DNA of 64,000 bases from a virus: IMG/VR virus record IMGVR_UViG_3300023171_000013, positions 2,704 through 66,703 of that record. One strand, given 5' to 3'. Shown here in pieces: positions 1 through 25,955 of this stretch (position 1 is the stretch's first letter; every line of letters starts with the position of its first letter). The translations under genes were made by a program, and so were the position numbers. Below the pieces are notes generated by a model. The model did not search any database and was not told the DNA's origin. It saw nothing but the letters and a program-made list of their open reading frames with translations.

Positions 1-78
1 CCCTCTATGGCTGTCTGTAAAATAGTTGCTAAAATAATAGAGAAGTCGCAAGTGGCGCGATACCACCATAACCCACCA
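1..78 (+). ncRNA. 3' part of a tRNA-like RNA, truncated by the window start
   Basis: T-arm-like GTGG-CGCGATA-CCAC followed by CATAACCC-A-CCA, ending 1 nt before the next tRNA; the 5' half is not visible. Confidence 0.5.
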
Positions 79-79
79 T

Positions 80-170
80 TCTCCCGTAGTGTAAAGTAGC
101 ACGAACAGCTTATACCTGTTGAGTCCTAGATTTGGGCGCAGTCTCGGTGCGAGTCCGAGCGGGAGAACCA
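80..170 (+). tRNA. tRNA-Ile(UAU) with a long variable arm
   Basis: Acceptor TCTCCCG/CGGGAGA, D stem GTGT/GCAC, anticodon arm AACAG-CT-TAT-AC-CTGTT, 22-nt variable region, T arm CTCGG-TGCGAGT-CCGAG, encoded CCA. Confidence 0.85.
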
Positions 171-15686: not shown

Positions 15687-16085
15687 TTATTTATTTTTGG
15701 TTCGCTTGCTTGGCTTCCACGGAGTCAGGCCCGAAGACTGAGATTTCGATTCGTTCTTCTGCATCCGTTTTGACTTTGATTTGCTCTGCGATGTCCAGCC
15801 TGATGTCTTGTTGTCGATCATCAGGGATACAACCGATATAGCGGAGGCAATCCAACTCCCACTTACAGAATTGGTTGTCGAAATCGGTTGGGATTTTTCT
15901 ATACACCTCAATGCGGATAAGAAATCTGCCTGCGCCTGCTTTTTTGCTTTCAACCGCTGCCAATGTCCCATCGACAAGACTGCATTCAGGGATAAGCACC
16001 TGCGCTTGATTACTATTTTGAACGGATATGCTTCCGCCGGAAACGGAATAGCCTTTCCTTCCTGTGATTTCGGCAAGCTGCTCAC
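15687..16085 (-). CDS. Overlapping ORF carrying the RusA-like N-terminal motif
   Basis: FKIVIKRRCLSLNAVLSMGHWQRLKAKK resembles the RusA SxN...HW..R..KK motif; GTG start 3 nt after the upstream stop. Confidence 0.55.
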   Translation of the reverse strand: MSSLPKSQEGKAIPFPAEAYPFKIVIKRRCLSLNAVLSMGHWQRLKAKKQAQADFLSALRCIEKSQPISTTNSVSGSWIASAISVVSLMIDNKTSGWTSQSKSKSKRMQKNESKSQSSGLTPWKPSKRTKNK

Positions 16086-16107
16086 TGGTTAAACGAGGGC
16101 TGGGCAT
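15691..16107 (-). CDS. RusA-like Holliday junction resolvase, catalytic C-terminal half
   Basis: RFLIRIEVYRKIPTDFDN...K..LDCL...GCIPDD...EERIEISV matches the RusA DxDN / K-D / DD pattern. Confidence 0.75.
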   Translation of the reverse strand: MPSPRLTSEQLAEITGRKGYSVSGGSISVQNSNQAQVLIPECSLVDGTLAAVESKKAGAGRFLIRIEVYRKIPTDFDNQFCKWELDCLRYIGCIPDDRQQDIRLDIAEQIKVKTDAEERIEISVFGPDSVEAKQANQK

Positions 16108-16340
16108 GTGACTCCTTCGATCACCGGCTCACTCACCGGAGCTTGCAACGCGGGACCACCCGATTCCTTCCAGTCTAGAAACATACGCACAGTCTTACCA
16201 ATCTGCTCAGGGGTAAGCTCGAAGTGCCAACACAACGCCTCCGCAATCATCTGTGAAGTCAATGCATCGGCCTGTATCTTGGCTACGTCACTGTTCACTT
16301 GGCGCATAAACTTCTTCCGGCTCTGTCGTTTTGGTTTCAT
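16089..16340 (-). CDS. Hypothetical protein
   Basis: 83-aa ATG ORF. Confidence 0.6.
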   Translation of the reverse strand: MKPKRQSRKKFMRQVNSDVAKIQADALTSQMIAEALCWHFELTPEQIGKTVRMFLDWKESGGPALQAPVSEPVIEGVTCPALV

Positions 16341-16706: not shown

Positions 16707-17063
16707 TCAGTAGTTATCCAACAACCCATTCTCCCTAGACCAAGATTTATTTTGCTCAATGCGTTCATGCATCTCCCTACACACCGCCAGCCACTTACTC
16801 GTATCGTTTAACCGCGAGCCGTAGCGTTTGGAAACATGGTGAATATCGGTAGCCAGCGGAACCTCACGCTCCCACCTAAAAGGATGCGCTGTGTATCTGC
16901 CCCCCTTGGCAATCACCTCGGCTTCATCTATTCCGTTTATCTTCATAAACGCCTGACAATATGGATGGGCTAATAGGTAGTCTTTTCGTAGCTTGGAATA
17001 CTCCCTGAGTTCTTTGCTTCGCTTACCACTCACACGTTTAATAGCACACCGTTTCATGCGCAC
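16707..17063 (-). CDS. HNH-type nuclease (NinG-like)
   Basis: YLLAHPYCQ...ATDIHH...WLAVCREMHERIE. Confidence 0.75.
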   Translation of the reverse strand: MRMKRCAIKRVSGKRSKELREYSKLRKDYLLAHPYCQAFMKINGIDEAEVIAKGGRYTAHPFRWEREVPLATDIHHVSKRYGSRLNDTSKWLAVCREMHERIEQNKSWSRENGLLDNY

Positions 17064-17649: not shown

Positions 17650-18504
17650 TTAAACAAGGTTCACATCTACGGTTACTGAGTCATCCGATGGAGCCACATG
17701 CACCCCACCGCGTTGCTCCTTCAACTCCCACAAACCAGCAGGCCAATGGTCACGGTCACATGAGTAGAGGTATGCCGCGCACAGGAACTCATTCATCCCC
17801 TGCTCCTGCTCCTCTGCTGTCCACCACTTAGCCACCGGCTCACAGGGTTCACCTGAGTTTATAGCCAGCGATACTACCCGAGGCAAGGAACCACCATGTT
17901 TCTTCTGGTAGCACCGTGCATAGAAAGCCAACTGTCTCACCCATGATTGATAGAAAGAGGGCTTTGCCCACTTTCCAGTCTTGGTCTTCTTAAATCCAGT
18001 AGTCTTGAAATCTACAATACATGGTTCACCAGCATGATTATAAAACACCATGTCCGTCTTGCCCGCAAAGCCAATGTCTTCATCTGCCATCATCAGTTCA
18101 TTGCCGATGACACTTCCCACGTTCGCACACAACCAAGGCACGCACGCATTGTAATGCTCGGCTACGTTGTCATCATTACAGGCCAGAGGATAATGCTCTA
18201 GTGCGTTATGAAGCGCAGTCCCAAAGTCCGCAGCATCCGTGCGTTTAACCTCGGACAGATTAGCAATGCGTTCCTTGTATTGCTCTACGCTTTCAACAGG
18301 ACCACGAGGGTTGTTGATTACAGCATCCAGCATGTTGCCGCGAATCCATATATCAAGACCAACGTTAGCCACCATCTTGAGGGCCATGGTAGCAGAAGCA
18401 TACAGCTTCCCCTCGCGTGCCTCCTTGATAGAAGCACCATAGGCAGACTCAACTACTCCATCAGGGAGTAGTCGGTAGAAATGGCTTACATCATTCTTGC
18501 TCAT
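17650..18504 (-). CDS. PD-(D/E)XK exonuclease (Cas4/RecB-like phage family)
   Basis: GTALHNALE, E...FAGKTD, IVDFKT and QLAFY motifs. Confidence 0.88.
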   Translation of the reverse strand: MSKNDVSHFYRLLPDGVVESAYGASIKEAREGKLYASATMALKMVANVGLDIWIRGNMLDAVINNPRGPVESVEQYKERIANLSEVKRTDAADFGTALHNALEHYPLACNDDNVAEHYNACVPWLCANVGSVIGNELMMADEDIGFAGKTDMVFYNHAGEPCIVDFKTTGFKKTKTGKWAKPSFYQSWVRQLAFYARCYQKKHGGSLPRVVSLAINSGEPCEPVAKWWTAEEQEQGMNEFLCAAYLYSCDRDHWPAGLWELKEQRGGVHVAPSDDSVTVDVNLV

Positions 18505-20276: not shown

Positions 20277-23200
20277 TTACTTCTTATCCTTCACCATCTC
20301 ATTGCCCAGCCGAGCAAGCTCCGCAAGTTGCTGTCGCCCCAGTTGAATATCGTCCTTCAAATCAGGACGCTTATCCACCAGTCCTTCCAGCATACGAATG
20401 TCCGAGTATAGCCCAGTCATCTTTTGATTTATGCCATTGAGAACTTGGTAATTACGAAGCTCATCTTGATTCTCCCGAATGAGTTCCCGCGCTCGCTCCT
20501 CATCCCCCTTGTTCATCGCAGACTTAATCCCTTCGTAGATAGCCGCGCTTCGCTCATACTCGGCATAGAACCTGTTGAGTTGTTCACCCCCACGAGTGGT
20601 AGTGAATGCACGCTTCATGTCTTCCGCGAGAGAGCGTGTCTTCGTAGTCTCCCCAGTGACCGCAGAGATAGCTTGGTCCGCAGCCCACATAGCCGTTGAG
20701 CCAGCAACTCCCGTGTAGTTCTTCGCCAGATAATCAATCTTGATCGGGCTGATATTCAGCGCAGCCCCAATCTCACGAGCCACAAGCGGAGTCGTAGCCT
20801 TGTATTGATCGGCAGGAGGAAGCTTTTGCAAGTAGCGAGGAACCACCTGTTGGCCTGAGAAGAAGTTACGGTTAACCGTATCGGAAGCCTCCAACAGAGG
20901 ACGCACCGCTTGAGGAGTGGCGAAGCTCATCAGCTTGTTTGCATCCGGCTCAAACGGAGTCACGAATCCGAACAGGTCCGACAGCGCAGCAGTGAAGAGT
21001 TGTGGCTTACCTTCTGCCTGCGCAAACCCATACATATCTTCGACAATGCGACGAGGAGACTGAGCCAGTCCACTTACCCCAGTAGGAAGAGGGAGTTTGA
21101 TGGCGAGATAGTTTCCATCCTCATCCTTCAGCCCCATAGGATGAAGGATAATTAGGTTACGATTACGCTCATCTTCCGTCAGGTCCATGTAGGCCTTGGC
21201 GCGTTCAGGCGTAGCAAGATTGTAGGCCGTAGCAGTAGCCAGCGCAGCCCCACCAGCAACCATAGCCTTGAGAGCGTAGGCAGCAGGAGCCTGCTTGAAT
21301 GCCTTCACGTTGGCGCGAGTGCCTTGGATACCAGCATTGAGATAGAGGAATACCCCATTGAGCGCACGTCCCCACTCACCCTTGTTGAGATAGTTGGCCG
21401 AACGTTCCTGCGATTCGTAAGCAGCCTTGAGAAAGATGTTATCCAAGGTAGCTTCATCTCCTTCAAGCACCCCTTGCTTGCTACGTTTAACCAGACCCTG
21501 CTCAATGGCTGGACCAGCCAAGCGATCAATCTCGTTCTTGAACACAGCAAGTCGGCCCATGTCTTCAAAGGCAGAGATGGTATCTTCAATTCTGCGAAGT
21601 GCCTGCATTGGTCGCTCACTCACAGGGATATTACCCATCAGTCGGCTTACTGTAACCTTACTCTCCCCCGGAGAACGGAACTGTTCAGTGAAGTTGAAAC
21701 GCCCAGCGTATTGTTCCCAGCGTTTAACCAATTCACTGTCCACGGGCTGACCTGTGCGCTTGGCATACTCAGGAATGCGGGATGCAAACGCGCTCTTAAT
21801 TCCCGTCCCATAATTCTTGAGCAGATTAGGAATATCTCGGAACTCCTTAGTGTTAACAACCACCTGCGCCATGTCGCGCGGAATCTGACGCAAAGCGAAC
21901 GTAGGGTTGAGCGAGGTAAACCCAGCACGTCCCACACGGACAGGCAGATTCATGATCTTGGCGAACAGCCCCATTGCTGGAACGTTCAATCCCTTGGCGG
22001 CTTCCTCCATTTCCTTTGGCACCTCGGCTTCCAGCTTTTCGCCTTCGTGCATGAAGCTGATCTTGTGCTTTGCTTTGGCGATAGCCTCTTTGTCTTTAAT
22101 CACTTCGCCGTTACCAACCCAATTGCCTTGGTCTGTCTTATCGACATAGGAACGATCAACAATCACCGGCTTACCGAACTCGTCCAATGCAGGCTTTCCT
22201 TGTGCATCCAGCATACGGTAGCCTCCTCCACCACTAATAGGTTCTAAGATGCCCGTAGCGCGAAGCGGCGACCCATCGGGTGCGCTCCTAAACAATTGCT
22301 TGATACCCGTGGACTCTCCGAGCCATTGAGAAGAACCAAGATTCACCCATGAGCGAGCGGTTGCGTTACGCCCACCCTGTTCAAACGTGGCATAAGCCCG
22401 ACCGAAAACTTCCTCCAAAGGAGACTCGATACCACGTTCAGAACCAAGAAACTTCTGAACCAATGTCTGCCCGCTGATAGATGCCGTGGATTTACCACTG
22501 CGAATTGCAGACGTAAGACCCGAAGCAATCTCATCCGAATCAAAGATACGGCTGAAAGGAACGTAGTCAGGATAAACCTTAACCAGCCAGTCAGCCAAGT
22601 CTCGGCTCACCAGACTATCGCTCACGGATTGCTCCAATAGCTGACGGTAGATGCCATTAACAAACTTGGCATGCGTCTCCATGATAGGAGCAAGCGACGC
22701 CACGAAGTCAGCCGCAACTTGCTTGGTAATTCCTCCACCCACCTCTTCCTCACTTGCTCCCATTGCGTAACGAGTAAGTGCCTGCTTGGAGATAAGGTAT
22801 TTGTCCAGTTGGCTGCGGAACGTTTCGTTGTCCATACCAGCAGCCTTGGCCGCAGCAGGTAACGTAGTCGTAACAAAGTCTGCCAGTCCTGATTCCTTAA
22901 TGAAACTCGTAGCCTGAGTCTGATTATTCATGCCGCGAGTTGGCGTGATGATACGAGGATCAACCACTGGGTCTAAGAACTTCCCCGCCTCACGCTCGGC
23001 TAGATCGGCCATGCGATATACCGCTTCGTTTGCCGTCACTAGCTTTCGCTCGAAATAACGAACGGTATCTAATGCGCTTTCCTTTAGTGTTTTCTCTGCA
23101 CCTTTACGCTGACCTTCGTTCATCGCGTCAATCTCGGCAGCCTTCTTGGCCGGATCAAATCCCTTGCTTGGTCCTGCCTGCACAGCAGCAATCACCGGCC

Positions 23201-25955
23201 CACTCATTCCAGCGAATGGAGTTCCCTTGGTTTGCTCCGCGATAATCTCATTCAGCTTAACCACCTGAGCCATGAGTTCAGCACGAGTCTGCTTCTTTGC
23301 CGCAGGCTTCGCGGCTGCCTGTGCCACAGCCCCCAGCTTTTCTAGCTGTCCAGCCGATGCCTCTACGCCCAGCCTTTGAGCAAGACGACGAATACCAGCA
23401 GCACCCAAGCTCATCACGCCCATACCTATCAGAGCATTTTGCAAGCGACGTTCCTGATATGCTTCATCGCTCTCCCCTTCTTCTTGTTGGGTTAGCCCGT
23501 AGCCAGCCACTGCACCAATGAGAGGTTCGCCAACAGACGGAAGCGTAGAGTTTCCGATAATACCAAGAGCGCGAGGAGCCTTGGGAATGGTTGCAGATTC
23601 CAGAGCATCCAACGCCTCCTGCTTATTGAATCCAATCAGCCCGTCATAAGGATACGGTTGGCCTCCGTTAACCTTACGATCAGTCTCATACCACCACCCG
23701 TTTTCAGGGTTACGATACATGCGATACTTCTCATCGCCAATAGTCACATCGTAGTTTCCATCCGTAGCAAAGTCCGATGCGCGTTTAACCACGGGCTTAC
23801 TGCCAACCGCAACGGGATCAGCCGATGCAGCCCTACCCCTGTTCGCAGCAGGCAACTCCATCTCCACGCGCTTAGGCTCTATACGGGTTCCAGTGCCACC
23901 AGAGAACGCATTGTTGATTGCGTTGATCGCATCCACCTCAGTTTCCAAAGGCGGATAACCGTCAGCAGCTAGTGCTTCGTTCAGACTCTCTCGAATACGG
24001 TCAAAGCTCAGTCCATCCTCGGTATTCTTTGCCGCCACGAATCGCTTAGGAAGACCATTACCCAGCAGATCATCTATCTCTCCATCGTAAACCCCGCGAG
24101 CAATCTTCACATTACCGCTGTCCATCGCTTCACGAATCACTTGTGCCGCAGGCTTAACCCCAGCCGCAAGCTCCTCTTCGTAGCGAGCAAGCGCGGCCAT
24201 TGCAGCCTCATCTCCCATAGACGATTGAATGTTTAACCGTTCAAGTTGCAGCGCATCACGAGCCGCATTCCCATCGGCAACCATTTTCTCACGACGTTGA
24301 CGCACACGACGACTCTCGCCAGTTGGAAGCGTTTCATTTGCCAGTGTATCTAGCTCTTTCTCGATAGCACGAAGACGCTTTTCCTGCCTCCCCCTTGCCC
24401 ATCCCTTGCTATTTGGAATCTCTGCCTTCCCCTCTCCTTCAATTCCAATAACCATGCGTTGCGGCCCCGTGCGAATAACCCCAGCAGGTTCTTCGATTGC
24501 AGCAGGCACAACCTCATCCGTTCCAGCAAGCACAGCCTGCCCCATAGCAGGCTCATCAATAACCGGAGCAGGCTCACCGGCCAACGATGCGATATAGGCT
24601 TGAGCGTCTTCTGTAGAATTGAACTCATCCACAACATTACCTTGTCCATCTTGAACAAAGATAGACCCATCTGGATCAGTCACTACGTTTAACCCCGCAG
24701 ACTCGGCTTCCAATAACTGTTCTCCCAATGGTGCCTGCTTGGCAACAGGAGCAACCCCTGAAATTTCATTGGCAGCAGCGTTGACGTTCTCAAGTGATCC
24801 AGCACCCATCGCGGTATCAGCTTGGCTAGCCAGCGAAGGAGAAGTAGAAGCTGGGGGAACATCCACCGTAAGCGTTGCCTCAATGTTATCAGGAGGCAAA
24901 AGAATGGATGCTGATTCAGCAGCACTAATCGGCTGATTAGCCTGTTCAAATACTTGTGCCGACAAAGCAGCAGGGCGTGTGCGACGGGCAATATCCAACG
25001 GCCCTTCCACATTGGCATTGGCCAATTCAATATCGCTCAAAGTGGGAACATCGCGCAAACCAGCAAGTTGTTCATCCTGCGTAAATCCACGCGCAACTTT
25101 CGGGTCTTCTTGCGCTCGAACCATCGCAATGAACGACGCAAGTTCTTCATCATCCATCATGGCCGTATCACGATTGGCAGCCTGTTGCGCCCCTTGCTCC
25201 ACTACTACCTCTCGGTAAGGAATGATTCGCGCAACTTCTTCATTCGTTAATTCATTAAGCCCAATCTGTTCTTCCAATTTACTTAGTTCTTGTGCGCTCA
25301 TCTTCCGACGAGCAGCGCGACTAAGCGGCTTGGCTACCGCCTCAAAACCTGTTCTCAGCGCACCAGCACCCACACCCATTGTGCCAGCATCAATGGCTAC
25401 CTTGAGAGGATCAACCTCACCACGAGTTTCTAGTTGTTCAGCCACACTGCCAGCAGCCCCAGCAGCACCCAAACGGAGCGCATCTTTACCCGCAGCACGC
25501 AGCACCGGCATAACCCCACGACCTACGGTGCCAGCAGCAGGAATAGCATTCATTGCGCCTTCCGCCAGTGTGCGAGAAAGGGAGTAATCAAACTTATCAC
25601 CACGAGCAATCTCGCGCCGTTGAACAATGTCTGCCCCTAATGCGCCACCAGCCACACCACCAATAGCCGCCCCCCCCGGCACAGGGGTAAGGAACCCCAA
25701 CCCTGCCCCGCCAAGACCAGCACCAGCAGAAATAGCCACATCCCCCACGGTTTCCATTACCGTAGCATCTAGGTCTTCGCGTTCACGAATCAAATCAGCC
25801 GCCGTAAGGATGTCTTTCGCTAGAGCTTCATCACCACCCGCCTCTTGCTGGTTCAAGCCATACCAAGATTTGAACAACGCACGCTTCGTATCTAAGTCAC
25901 CATTAACGTAGAGCGGATCAGACTTAACGACCGAGAAAGGGACTAGGTTTGCCAT
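20277..25955 (-). CDS. Large internal virion/ejection protein with LPD38-like C-terminus
   Basis: 1892 aa at the end of the virion operon; LNPTF...PRD, LYLNAGIQG, NRNFFSGQQVVP and NISPIKIDY...YTG motifs. Confidence 0.75.
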   Translation of the reverse strand: MANLVPFSVVKSDPLYVNGDLDTKRALFKSWYGLNQQEAGGDEALAKDILTAADLIREREDLDATVMETVGDVAISAGAGLGGAGLGFLTPVPGGAAIGGVAGGALGADIVQRREIARGDKFDYSLSRTLAEGAMNAIPAAGTVGRGVMPVLRAAGKDALRLGAAGAAGSVAEQLETRGEVDPLKVAIDAGTMGVGAGALRTGFEAVAKPLSRAARRKMSAQELSKLEEQIGLNELTNEEVARIIPYREVVVEQGAQQAANRDTAMMDDEELASFIAMVRAQEDPKVARGFTQDEQLAGLRDVPTLSDIELANANVEGPLDIARRTRPAALSAQVFEQANQPISAAESASILLPPDNIEATLTVDVPPASTSPSLASQADTAMGAGSLENVNAAANEISGVAPVAKQAPLGEQLLEAESAGLNVVTDPDGSIFVQDGQGNVVDEFNSTEDAQAYIASLAGEPAPVIDEPAMGQAVLAGTDEVVPAAIEEPAGVIRTGPQRMVIGIEGEGKAEIPNSKGWARGRQEKRLRAIEKELDTLANETLPTGESRRVRQRREKMVADGNAARDALQLERLNIQSSMGDEAAMAALARYEEELAAGVKPAAQVIREAMDSGNVKIARGVYDGEIDDLLGNGLPKRFVAAKNTEDGLSFDRIRESLNEALAADGYPPLETEVDAINAINNAFSGGTGTRIEPKRVEMELPAANRGRAASADPVAVGSKPVVKRASDFATDGNYDVTIGDEKYRMYRNPENGWWYETDRKVNGGQPYPYDGLIGFNKQEALDALESATIPKAPRALGIIGNSTLPSVGEPLIGAVAGYGLTQQEEGESDEAYQERRLQNALIGMGVMSLGAAGIRRLAQRLGVEASAGQLEKLGAVAQAAAKPAAKKQTRAELMAQVVKLNEIIAEQTKGTPFAGMSGPVIAAVQAGPSKGFDPAKKAAEIDAMNEGQRKGAEKTLKESALDTVRYFERKLVTANEAVYRMADLAEREAGKFLDPVVDPRIITPTRGMNNQTQATSFIKESGLADFVTTTLPAAAKAAGMDNETFRSQLDKYLISKQALTRYAMGASEEEVGGGITKQVAADFVASLAPIMETHAKFVNGIYRQLLEQSVSDSLVSRDLADWLVKVYPDYVPFSRIFDSDEIASGLTSAIRSGKSTASISGQTLVQKFLGSERGIESPLEEVFGRAYATFEQGGRNATARSWVNLGSSQWLGESTGIKQLFRSAPDGSPLRATGILEPISGGGGYRMLDAQGKPALDEFGKPVIVDRSYVDKTDQGNWVGNGEVIKDKEAIAKAKHKISFMHEGEKLEAEVPKEMEEAAKGLNVPAMGLFAKIMNLPVRVGRAGFTSLNPTFALRQIPRDMAQVVVNTKEFRDIPNLLKNYGTGIKSAFASRIPEYAKRTGQPVDSELVKRWEQYAGRFNFTEQFRSPGESKVTVSRLMGNIPVSERPMQALRRIEDTISAFEDMGRLAVFKNEIDRLAGPAIEQGLVKRSKQGVLEGDEATLDNIFLKAAYESQERSANYLNKGEWGRALNGVFLYLNAGIQGTRANVKAFKQAPAAYALKAMVAGGAALATATAYNLATPERAKAYMDLTEDERNRNLIILHPMGLKDEDGNYLAIKLPLPTGVSGLAQSPRRIVEDMYGFAQAEGKPQLFTAALSDLFGFVTPFEPDANKLMSFATPQAVRPLLEASDTVNRNFFSGQQVVPRYLQKLPPADQYKATTPLVAREIGAALNISPIKIDYLAKNYTGVAGSTAMWAADQAISAVTGETTKTRSLAEDMKRAFTTTRGGEQLNRFYAEYERSAAIYEGIKSAMNKGDEERARELIRENQDELRNYQVLNGINQKMTGLYSDIRMLEGLVDKRPDLKDDIQLGRQQLAELARLGNEMVKDKK

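Follow-up and report, generated by a model that had tools for sequence, protein, structure and literature searches.

Two reading frames of the minus strand at positions 15687–16107 of the window (the whole 64,000-nucleotide stretch of viral DNA analyzed here) are both conserved among related phages, with a fixed offset and a dual-coded junction, and alignment together with structure prediction identifies one of the two products, ORF B, as RusA-like. The best explanation of these data is that two separately translated overlapping genes specify a two-chain RusA-like Holliday junction resolvase, a reading to which we give a probability of roughly 55%. It would entail translation of both ORFs, binding of the two chains to each other and nuclease activity of their complex. 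The explanation by two genes is drawn from the finding that two products are under selection, from the distribution of a potential slip site, which is not a feature of the family, from the presence of own start signals, and from an open leader in the second frame. Two possibilities had been named in the original prediction, a programmed frameshift that yields the full resolvase and two overlapping genes that make a two-chain enzyme, and it is the latter that fits all comparative data. At close to even odds, the locus represents a single small domain permanently split into two overprinted chains with a dual-coded seam, an arrangement that would be ancient, widespread in uncultured phages (at least 238 clusters at 50% identity) and annotated only as unrelated "hypothetical proteins".

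The overlap of ORF A and ORF B is full (~400 nt), and frame A is +1 relative to frame B (Table 1). When the sequence was read again, the ORF coordinates, starts and overlap, the spacing of the GTG, and the position and frame of the heptamer all proved to have been described correctly. The last codons of the upstream ORF overlap the start of ORF B. The short distance between the stop codon of this upstream ORF and the GTG of ORF A suggests, as a property of the sequence, termination-reinitiation coupling; the same layout of upstream-ORF C-terminus, stop and GTG was also found in the related loci L001, L058 and L059. The frame A codons GCA AAA AAG contain the heptamer A_AAA_AAG, and a -1 slip at this site would lead from residue 49 of ORF A to residue 57 of ORF B, four residues before the first core strand. 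The virus record is a 66.7-kb contig that is roughly 97% complete. An exonuclease-like gene and an HNH-like gene are located near the locus, the exonuclease-like gene being beside it. A Pfam search for RusA across the whole 66.7-kb record gave no match.

Table 1. Features of the locus, with positions in the window; codons are numbered with RK..DxDN as 0
Feature	Residues or codons	Positions	Strand	Basis or remark
ORF A (frame A), 132 aa, GTG start		15687..16085	minus	sequence; candidate N-terminal half, then Ser/Lys/Arg-rich tail
ORF B (frame B), 138 aa, ATG start		15691..16107	minus	sequence; N-peptide, unconstrained leader, RusA-like C-terminal catalytic half
Upstream ORF, 83 aa, frame A		16089..16340	minus	TAA at 16091-16089, 3 nt before ORF A GTG
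Shine-Dalgarno-like GAAGGAG		16112..16118	minus	sequence; 4 nt upstream of ORF B ATG
A_AAA_AAG heptamer	frame A codons K48-K49	15939..15945	minus	candidate, non-conserved -1 slip site
Conserved frame A segment	ORF A 19-60	15906..16031	minus	comparative alignment, AlphaFold2
ORF B N-peptide	ORF B 1-25	16033..16107	minus	frame B is the conserved frame; predicted helix 8-15
ORF B leader/linker	ORF B 26-59	15931..16032	minus	poorly conserved, predicted disordered; same bases encode the frame A half
Dual-coded junction	codons -11/-9 to -4	15909..15932	minus	both readings conserved
RusA-like catalytic half	ORF B 61-125	15733..15927	minus	alignment and structure prediction; order: strand 62-70, R70-K71..D75-x-D77-N78..K82, helix 82-90, D96-D97, strands 102-111 and 119-125
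Short helix, ORF B	8-15			AlphaFold2
Disordered segments, ORF B	26-46, 50-59			AlphaFold2, pLDDT below 50
Strand, ORF B	62-70			AlphaFold2
Helix, ORF B	82-90			AlphaFold2
Strand, ORF B	102-111			AlphaFold2
Strand, ORF B	119-125			AlphaFold2
Frame A P	codon -32			27/30 lineages
Frame A S	codon -31			30/30 lineages
Frame A N	codon -29			29/30 lineages
Frame A H	codon -22			29/30 lineages
Frame A W	codon -21			30/30 lineages
Frame A R	codon -19			29/30 lineages
Frame A K	codon -15			30/30 lineages
Frame A Q	codon -11			25/30 lineages
Frame A F	codon -8			25/30 lineages
Frame A S	codon -6			25/30 lineages
Frame A A	codon -5			26/30 lineages
Frame A L	codon -4			30/30 lineages

The references for RusA were the E. 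coli protein (PDB 1Q8R, 2H8C and 2H8E), Pfam PF05866 and PHROG 34 and 1682. Twelve full-length homologues of ORF B were found, at 48–91% identity. All 28 members of the ORF B family matched phrog_34, annotated as "RusA-like Holliday junction resolvase" (best E 6e-9; E 2.2e-4 for the ORF B of the window itself), and 12 of the 28 relatives matched phrog_1682. With Pfam PF05866, a single relative out of 28 gave a match, at E 0.038 and below the cut-off, and the ORF B of the window gave none. When the ORF B profile was compared with PDB sequences, no RusA was found at E <= 10; the matches to S15 and C3a (E >= 0.4) were dismissed as chance. Neither ORF B (tblastn) nor the DNA of the locus (blastn) had a match in a collection of 50,697 records of cultured phages, and no relative of the ORF B alignment was revealed in bacterial and archaeal genome contigs.

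In the 28-sequence alignment of ORF B, residues R70, D75, D77, N78, K82, D86, R89, D97 and K111 are invariant, and R61 and K71 are nearly so. Using this alignment, AlphaFold2 produced a model of ORF B with a mean pLDDT of 64.9, the elements of which are listed in Table 1. A Foldseek search with the model returned nothing at E <= 0.001, and RusA entries were ranked 28 and 38 (E about 2). In a second look with VIA-align the top three chains were all E. coli RusA; for 1q8r_B, residues 59–128 of the model were placed onto RusA 52–118 (64 residues, rmsd 2.9 A) with a Z of 4.9, which is a modest value on a scale where rows within 1 unit are tied. The catalytic residues of the RusA type (acidic residues and a lysine, with R69 and N73 of RusA also in the comparison) are present in ORF B and lie inside the stretch aligned to RusA 52–118, an alignment reported by range and not as residue-by-residue equivalence. 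According to an excerpt of a published account of RusA, its fold is a four-stranded mixed sheet flanked by two helices, the residues D70, D72, K76 and D90/D91 are critical, and R69 serves in DNA binding (PMC1636454). The core of ORF B has three predicted strands and one helix against the four strands and two helices of single-chain RusA, so that the first strand and the first helix would be missing from it. As judged by alignment and modelling, ORF B is RusA-like in its C-terminal half only. With the catalytic residues present and the single-chain fold incomplete, the product of the locus can thus be considered a putative RusA-like enzyme whose split architecture is new and sets it apart from the ordinary members of this group.

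A segment that fits the missing N-terminal half of RusA in the predicted structure is found in frame A, its sequence homology being drawn from three weak matches. The segment consists, in this order, of an extended strand (FKIVI), PS[LW]N, six further residues, HW.R, K.KK and Q..F.SAL, with a long helix, and it was present in nearly all of 67 related loci (viral and metagenome contigs translated in the +1 frame). A word search with the whole ORF A protein found no homologue, and Pfam and PHROG gave no match to it. The profile built from the frame A segment (42 residues) likewise found nothing relevant in Pfam and in PDB sequences. The same profile was searched against 1.84 billion representatives of clusters formed at 50% identity and matched 238 proteins at E <= 1e-3, 77 of them at E <= 1e-10; the 32 matches that were inspected are frame A ORF calls with Ser/Thr/Lys-rich tails. 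A second frame A search gave 37 matches, all without a Pfam domain. AlphaFold2 predicted residues 21–60 of ORF A with a pLDDT of 90–97 and placed an extended segment, a helix at 33–38 and a continuous 25-residue helix at 41–65 in this protein.

Three of 17 frame A segments aligned weakly (E 0.15–0.52) with positions 28–65 of phrog_1682, and positions 71–154 of the same profile were aligned by all four ORF B proteins compared. Each of the frame A matches is non-significant when taken alone, and what counts in these alignments is that frame A and ORF B are co-linear on one profile. The core idea of the original prediction, that frame A contains the N-terminal half of a RusA-like resolvase and frame B its catalytic half, holds; among the profile searches, PHROG matched frame B throughout (phrog_34, 28/28) and frame A weakly (phrog_1682, 3/17), and Pfam and the PDB gave no significant match for either frame. 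It should be mentioned that a wide VIA-align search with the ORF A model returned generic long-helix matches only (the best, with Z 4.9, was a mitoribosomal protein) and was uninformative on RusA.

The split was found to recur in the relatives. All 74 distinct related DNA sequences from phages and metagenomes have the catalytic core shifted into the -1 frame with respect to the frame A half. These sequences, which carry the frame A motif, came from the 67 loci together with 80 further loci; eight of them missed the strict core pattern, and R.R..D.DN was visible in these by inspection. The spacing is fixed as well: the core motif begins 62 nt after the W codon. DxDN was found in the same frame as the frame A motif in none of the best 150 of the 238 profile matches, and no relative with both halves in one frame was seen among these 150 proteins and the 74 DNA sequences. 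Two proteins, P0015 and P0023, were considered as in-frame fusions and rejected. Frames A and B are joined in them, but they do not contain DxDN and look like deletion or indel variants.

Judged from the window alone, the two-frame layout and the heptamer are no more than chance. Frame A remained open to the end in 31% or 37% (two tests) of synonymous-codon randomizations that keep the ORF B protein, and the 10 copies of AAAAAAG in the window compare with 17 +/- 4 in shuffles. The non-random signal is comparative, and consists of the two-frame layout and the strong amino acid conservation of frame A in every relative found.

To locate selection along the locus, ungapped nucleotide blocks were compared, at first from 18 lineages and later from 30 lineages sharing <85% identity. 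In both blocks the most variable position at codons from about -42 to -4 is the third base of frame A, and from codon -3 onward it is the third base of frame B. The bases of the junction specify the end of helix 1 (Q52..F55.S57-A58-L59) in frame A and, in frame B, G60-R61 together with the beginning of strand 2 (FLIRI). The wobble of the frame A Ala-Leu at -5/-4 is free. In frame B, Arg at -9 is present in 28 of the 30 lineages with a varying wobble base, and frame A therefore alternates between A, E and D there. At -6 frame A has S, Y or F, always with T as the first base, so that frame B stays hydrophobic, and at two hydrophobic codons within the seam the third base of frame B never varies. 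In total, about 6–8 codons (18–24 bases) are constrained in both frames, and at codons -11 to -4 the same bases were found to be under purifying selection in both frames, which is the mark of overprinting. Since one -1 shift cannot join the Ala-Leu of frame A (-5/-4) with the Arg of frame B (-9), at least two products are under selection. The earlier observation that one and the same stretch of nucleotides encodes the helix in frame A and the strand in frame B was correct and turned out to be decisive, both readings being conserved. An apparent frame B motif in the frame A zone, E..LAK, is by this comparison a by-product of frame A, and its Leu is invariant because the Trp codon of frame A forces it.

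In the clade of the window, conservation of the first 25 codons of ORF B is confined to frame B, which gives a B-A-B pattern along the gene. Residues M1, R5, T7, Q10, L11 and G19 of this N-peptide are invariant in 13 sequences, and frame A is without conservation over the same bases. Fifteen differences in contigs of near relatives from other runs (DNA contigs compared at the locus) fit the same pattern; for example, the SNPs at positions 16048 and 16060 are silent in frame B and change the amino acid in frame A. No RNA run was found among those listed for the locus.

Both frames usually have start signals of their own in the sequence. An ATG of ORF A precedes strand 1 in 25 of the 30 lineages, in 11 cases with a Shine-Dalgarno-like motif, and an ATG of ORF B is present in 29 of 30. 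For ORF A of the window and of L001, there is neither an ATG nor a Shine-Dalgarno motif, only the GTG next to the stop of the upstream ORF. L064 has a single Shine-Dalgarno motif followed by both ATGs, which are 7 nt apart, and in L071, L085 and L101 the start of ORF A comes before that of ORF B. None of the 18 lineages of the first block has a frame B stop in the leader; the chance of this is 0.15–0.68 per lineage, with a product of 10^-8.6 if the lineages are treated as independent, and a stricter permutation gave 0 stops against 2.8 expected (P 0.03). Stops are also somewhat depleted in the ORF A tail (23 observed, 31.3 expected, P 0.005), with 87 stops against 85.5 expected in the other frame. 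It should be mentioned that a 70-residue unconstrained tail on one functional subunit and a 35-residue disordered leader on the other are unusual features.

A programmed -1 frameshift at 15939–15945 would, in the lineage of the window, join ORF A 1–49 to ORF B 57–138 in a working resolvase of 131 aa, which we consider unlikely; as a mechanism of the family, the frameshift put forward in the original prediction is unsupported. The site itself is attractive: the heptamer is canonical, in the correct frame and four residues before strand 2, A_AAA_AAG is the slip site of dnaX and IS elements, and AAAAAAG is otherwise scarce in the window, as the shuffles indicate. It recurs at the same position in eight of the 30 non-redundant lineages, from about three clades, and in 37 of the 55 rows of the first set, many of which are near-identical. 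However, 20 of the 30 lineages contain no canonical heptamer between W and the core (two lineages have a different one nearby), and eight of the 12 closest protein homologues carry K-E or Q-E in frame B at this site, which makes AAAAAAG impossible there. The heptamer is thus not conserved in the homologues, contrary to what a family-wide slip site would predict. In the window, no stable structure was found in the 69 nt downstream (MFE -7.9 kcal/mol against a shuffle mean of -10.1, z +0.9), and no Shine-Dalgarno-like run was seen 6–17 nt upstream. Compared with what defines a frameshift gene, an in-frame X_XXY_YYZ heptamer is present at the junction, and slip-site conservation and a stimulatory element are not. 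Moreover, frame A is under selection for 10 codons past the heptamer; the conserved frame A codons -11 to -4 (Q..F.SAL), which come after the slip site, would be lost in the fusion, and the predicted 25-residue helix 1 crosses the site, so that the fusion would retain nine of its residues. Across the 30 lineages the heptamer is commoner than naive codon expectation, and together with its presence in eight of them this makes some use of the site possible. A slip at A_AAA_AAG may let a minority of ORF A ribosomes enter frame B, and the fusion would be at most an optional extra in the lineage of the window, not the mechanism of the family. A single polypeptide made by two shifts, from frame B by +1 into frame A and by -1 back to frame B, would agree with the B-A-B course of selection along the gene of the window, and is nevertheless very improbable. 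A general double shift of this kind is ruled out by L071, L085 and L101, where ORF B begins after ORF A and no N-peptide in frame B precedes frame A; in addition, no conserved +1 site was seen, and one ribosome cannot read the dual-coded junction twice.

It is also conceivable, if doubtful, that ORF B alone is a minimal RusA-like nuclease and that ORF A is an overprinted gene with another role (for instance in regulating or inhibiting ORF B, or in binding DNA), the likeness of frame A to the N-terminal half of RusA being coincidental or only ancestral. All catalytic residues are indeed in ORF B, frame A has no significant match in Pfam or the PDB, and the ORF A model finds only generic helical matches. 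Against this, ORF B would be one strand and one helix short of the RusA fold as given in the excerpt cited above (PMC1636454), on one RusA-like profile the match of ORF B follows closely on that of the frame A segments, and the two halves were never found apart and never in one frame. Finally, the whole arrangement could be ascribed to a sequencing indel, or to a pseudogene with a chance alternative ORF, which is scarcely credible. An open second frame in the window alone is not unusual (P 0.31–0.37), but the same offset in 74 of 74 distinct sequences, the 238 clusters of frame A proteins and the purifying selection in both frames already refute this explanation at the level of compared sequences. 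The argument made at the outset against a sequencing indel holds as well. A homopolymer error is unsupported: contig X2, from an independent run, covers 15836–15986 and thus the A run at 15939–15945, with two substitutions and no indels. A contig from run X1 is identical to the window over the locus, and X1 may be its source.

According to the preferred two-chain reading, ORF A would supply strand 1, the PS[LW]N loop, HW and the full helix 1, followed by an unconstrained basic tail. ORF B would be translated from its own ATG and Shine-Dalgarno motif, and its disordered leader would be the alternate-frame read of the ORF A half; it would then supply strand 2, the RK..DxDN..K region of helix 2, the DD and strands 3 and 4. 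The two chains would associate non-covalently into a RusA-like protomer, which presumably dimerizes like RusA and cuts four-way DNA junctions in phage recombination or packaging. In the window, a minority slip at the heptamer might additionally give the 131-aa fusion with a truncated helix 1 as an optional by-product.

Joint modelling of the two chains, which had been suggested in the original prediction, lends weak support to the ORF A–ORF B pairing. Complex prediction with ORF A 17–63 and ORF B 55–130 gave an ipSAE of 0.45 (median of three runs) against 0.02 for the best control, with at least 91% contact agreement among the three runs and a partner pLDDT of at least 75. The mark used was passed by 58 of 80 solved complexes and by two of 110 mismatched pairs; at scores <=0.60, where our value lies, seven of the 80 solved complexes passed, and both passing mismatches were in that range. 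Likeness to solved structures may also be enough for halves of a known fold to pass.

If both ORFs are translated and assembled, the locus would represent a naturally occurring fold whose coding sequence is distributed over two overlapping frames, and as an instance of overprinting it bears on the origin and persistence of overlapping genes. A large group of environmental phages would, if the model is true, possess a junction resolvase that is undetected by standard Pfam annotation, and a compact natural split-enzyme system would be available for the study of fragment complementation. Gene callers give either ORF as a lone hypothetical protein, and the RusA-like identity is missed. For frameshift prediction, the locus offers a textbook heptamer that is probably not the mechanism.

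To our knowledge, the division of one small fold between overlapping frames is without precedent, and no report of a frameshifted or split RusA was found in a full-text search of the literature (supplementary files outside its scope). An excerpt of the PRFect paper lists "RusA/RuvC" among genes "known to contain a frameshift", and the only Holliday junction reference in that excerpt (ref. 40) is a 1991 ruvC paper (PMC10885494).

Like E. coli RusA, ORF B contains, in order, a strand, R-K..D-x-D-N..K on a helix, DD and two strands. RusA is a dimer that cleaves four-way junctions with Mg2+. It is a single chain of 120 aa, whereas here the first strand and helix would be located in another reading frame and another ORF. 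Besides, the Lys of ORF B follows the Asn by four residues (three in RusA), and the loop corresponding to RusA residues 15–28 is much shorter.

In dnaX, which encodes tau and gamma, and in OrfA-OrfB of IS1 and IS3, a -1 frameshift occurs at A_AAA_AAG. The window has the identical heptamer in its upstream frame and the downstream part in the -1 frame. Unlike in these systems, the heptamer is non-conserved here and no stimulatory structure is predicted in the window, the upstream frame is conserved well past the site, and the downstream frame, already open from well before the site, possesses a start of its own. The spanin genes Rz/Rz1 of lambda and other overprinted phage pairs encode, in overlapping frames, two unrelated proteins that act together. 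The locus described here resembles Rz/Rz1 in that the same DNA specifies two proteins in overlapping frames, which would likewise act jointly, and differs from it in that the two frames appear to encode consecutive halves of one small enzyme domain, with a dual-coded seam between them.

The split resolvase, that is ORF A and ORF B read as a two-chain RusA-like enzyme, is located in a predicted module of DNA metabolism or recombination, since its neighbours include HNH-endonuclease-like and exonuclease-like ORFs and an ORF of 1892 aa. In the window, only 3 nt separate the stop codon of the ORF lying upstream from the GTG start codon of ORF A, and the last codons of this upstream ORF contain the ATG of ORF B. 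The same arrangement of upstream-ORF end, GTG and ORF B ATG was revealed in three related loci (L001, L058 and L059). This shared stop-GTG layout suggests that, in this clade, translation of ORF A begins through termination-reinitiation coupling.

Features at and around the proposed split resolvase (window positions)
Feature	Position	Strand	Remarks
ORF A tail, past the conserved half	15687-15905	-	Ser-, Lys- and Arg-rich; similar in relatives
Upstream ORF	16089-16340	-	83 aa; frame A; C-terminus ..C-P-x-L-V-stop
HNH-endonuclease-like ORF	16707-17063	-	phrog_2323, E 2.6e-4
Exonuclease-like ORF	17650-18504	-	phrog_298, E 3.5e-19; also matches a Cas4-like family
1892-aa ORF	20277-25955	-	Neighbour of the split resolvase

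Both in the window and in its relatives, the ORF A tail corresponds to the Glu-rich end of ORF B read in the +1 frame. Of 18 lineages, 15 keep this tail open over approximately 50-70 codons, and stop codons are modestly depleted in these tails (23 observed vs. 31.3 expected, P 0.005); no stop depletion was seen in the third frame.

Two database proteins matching the frame A profile, P0015 (91 aa) and P0023 (121 aa), are encoded by single ORFs running from the frame A N-terminal half into frame B sequence. Each lacks the catalytic DxDN core or strand 2. They have the appearance of variants with a deletion or indel, or of assembly errors, and do not represent intact single-chain resolvases.

3' of the resolvase locus, some relatives carry a conserved domain approximately 45 aa long (M-T-R-x-E-L-I-x-A-Y-W ... 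L-R-Q-Y-I-Q-M-G-T-T), which shares its reading frame with ORF B in L021 and L061-L063, and with the ORF A tail in proteins P0020, P0174 and P0183. Alternatively, it may be a small downstream gene of its own without a preceding stop codon.

As for AAAAAAG, the possible -1 slip site in frame A, this heptamer is rarer than expected, with 10 occurrences on both strands of the window vs. 17 ± 4 in dinucleotide-preserving shuffles, 98 of 100 of which contained at least 10. This phage may generally avoid the slippery sequence.
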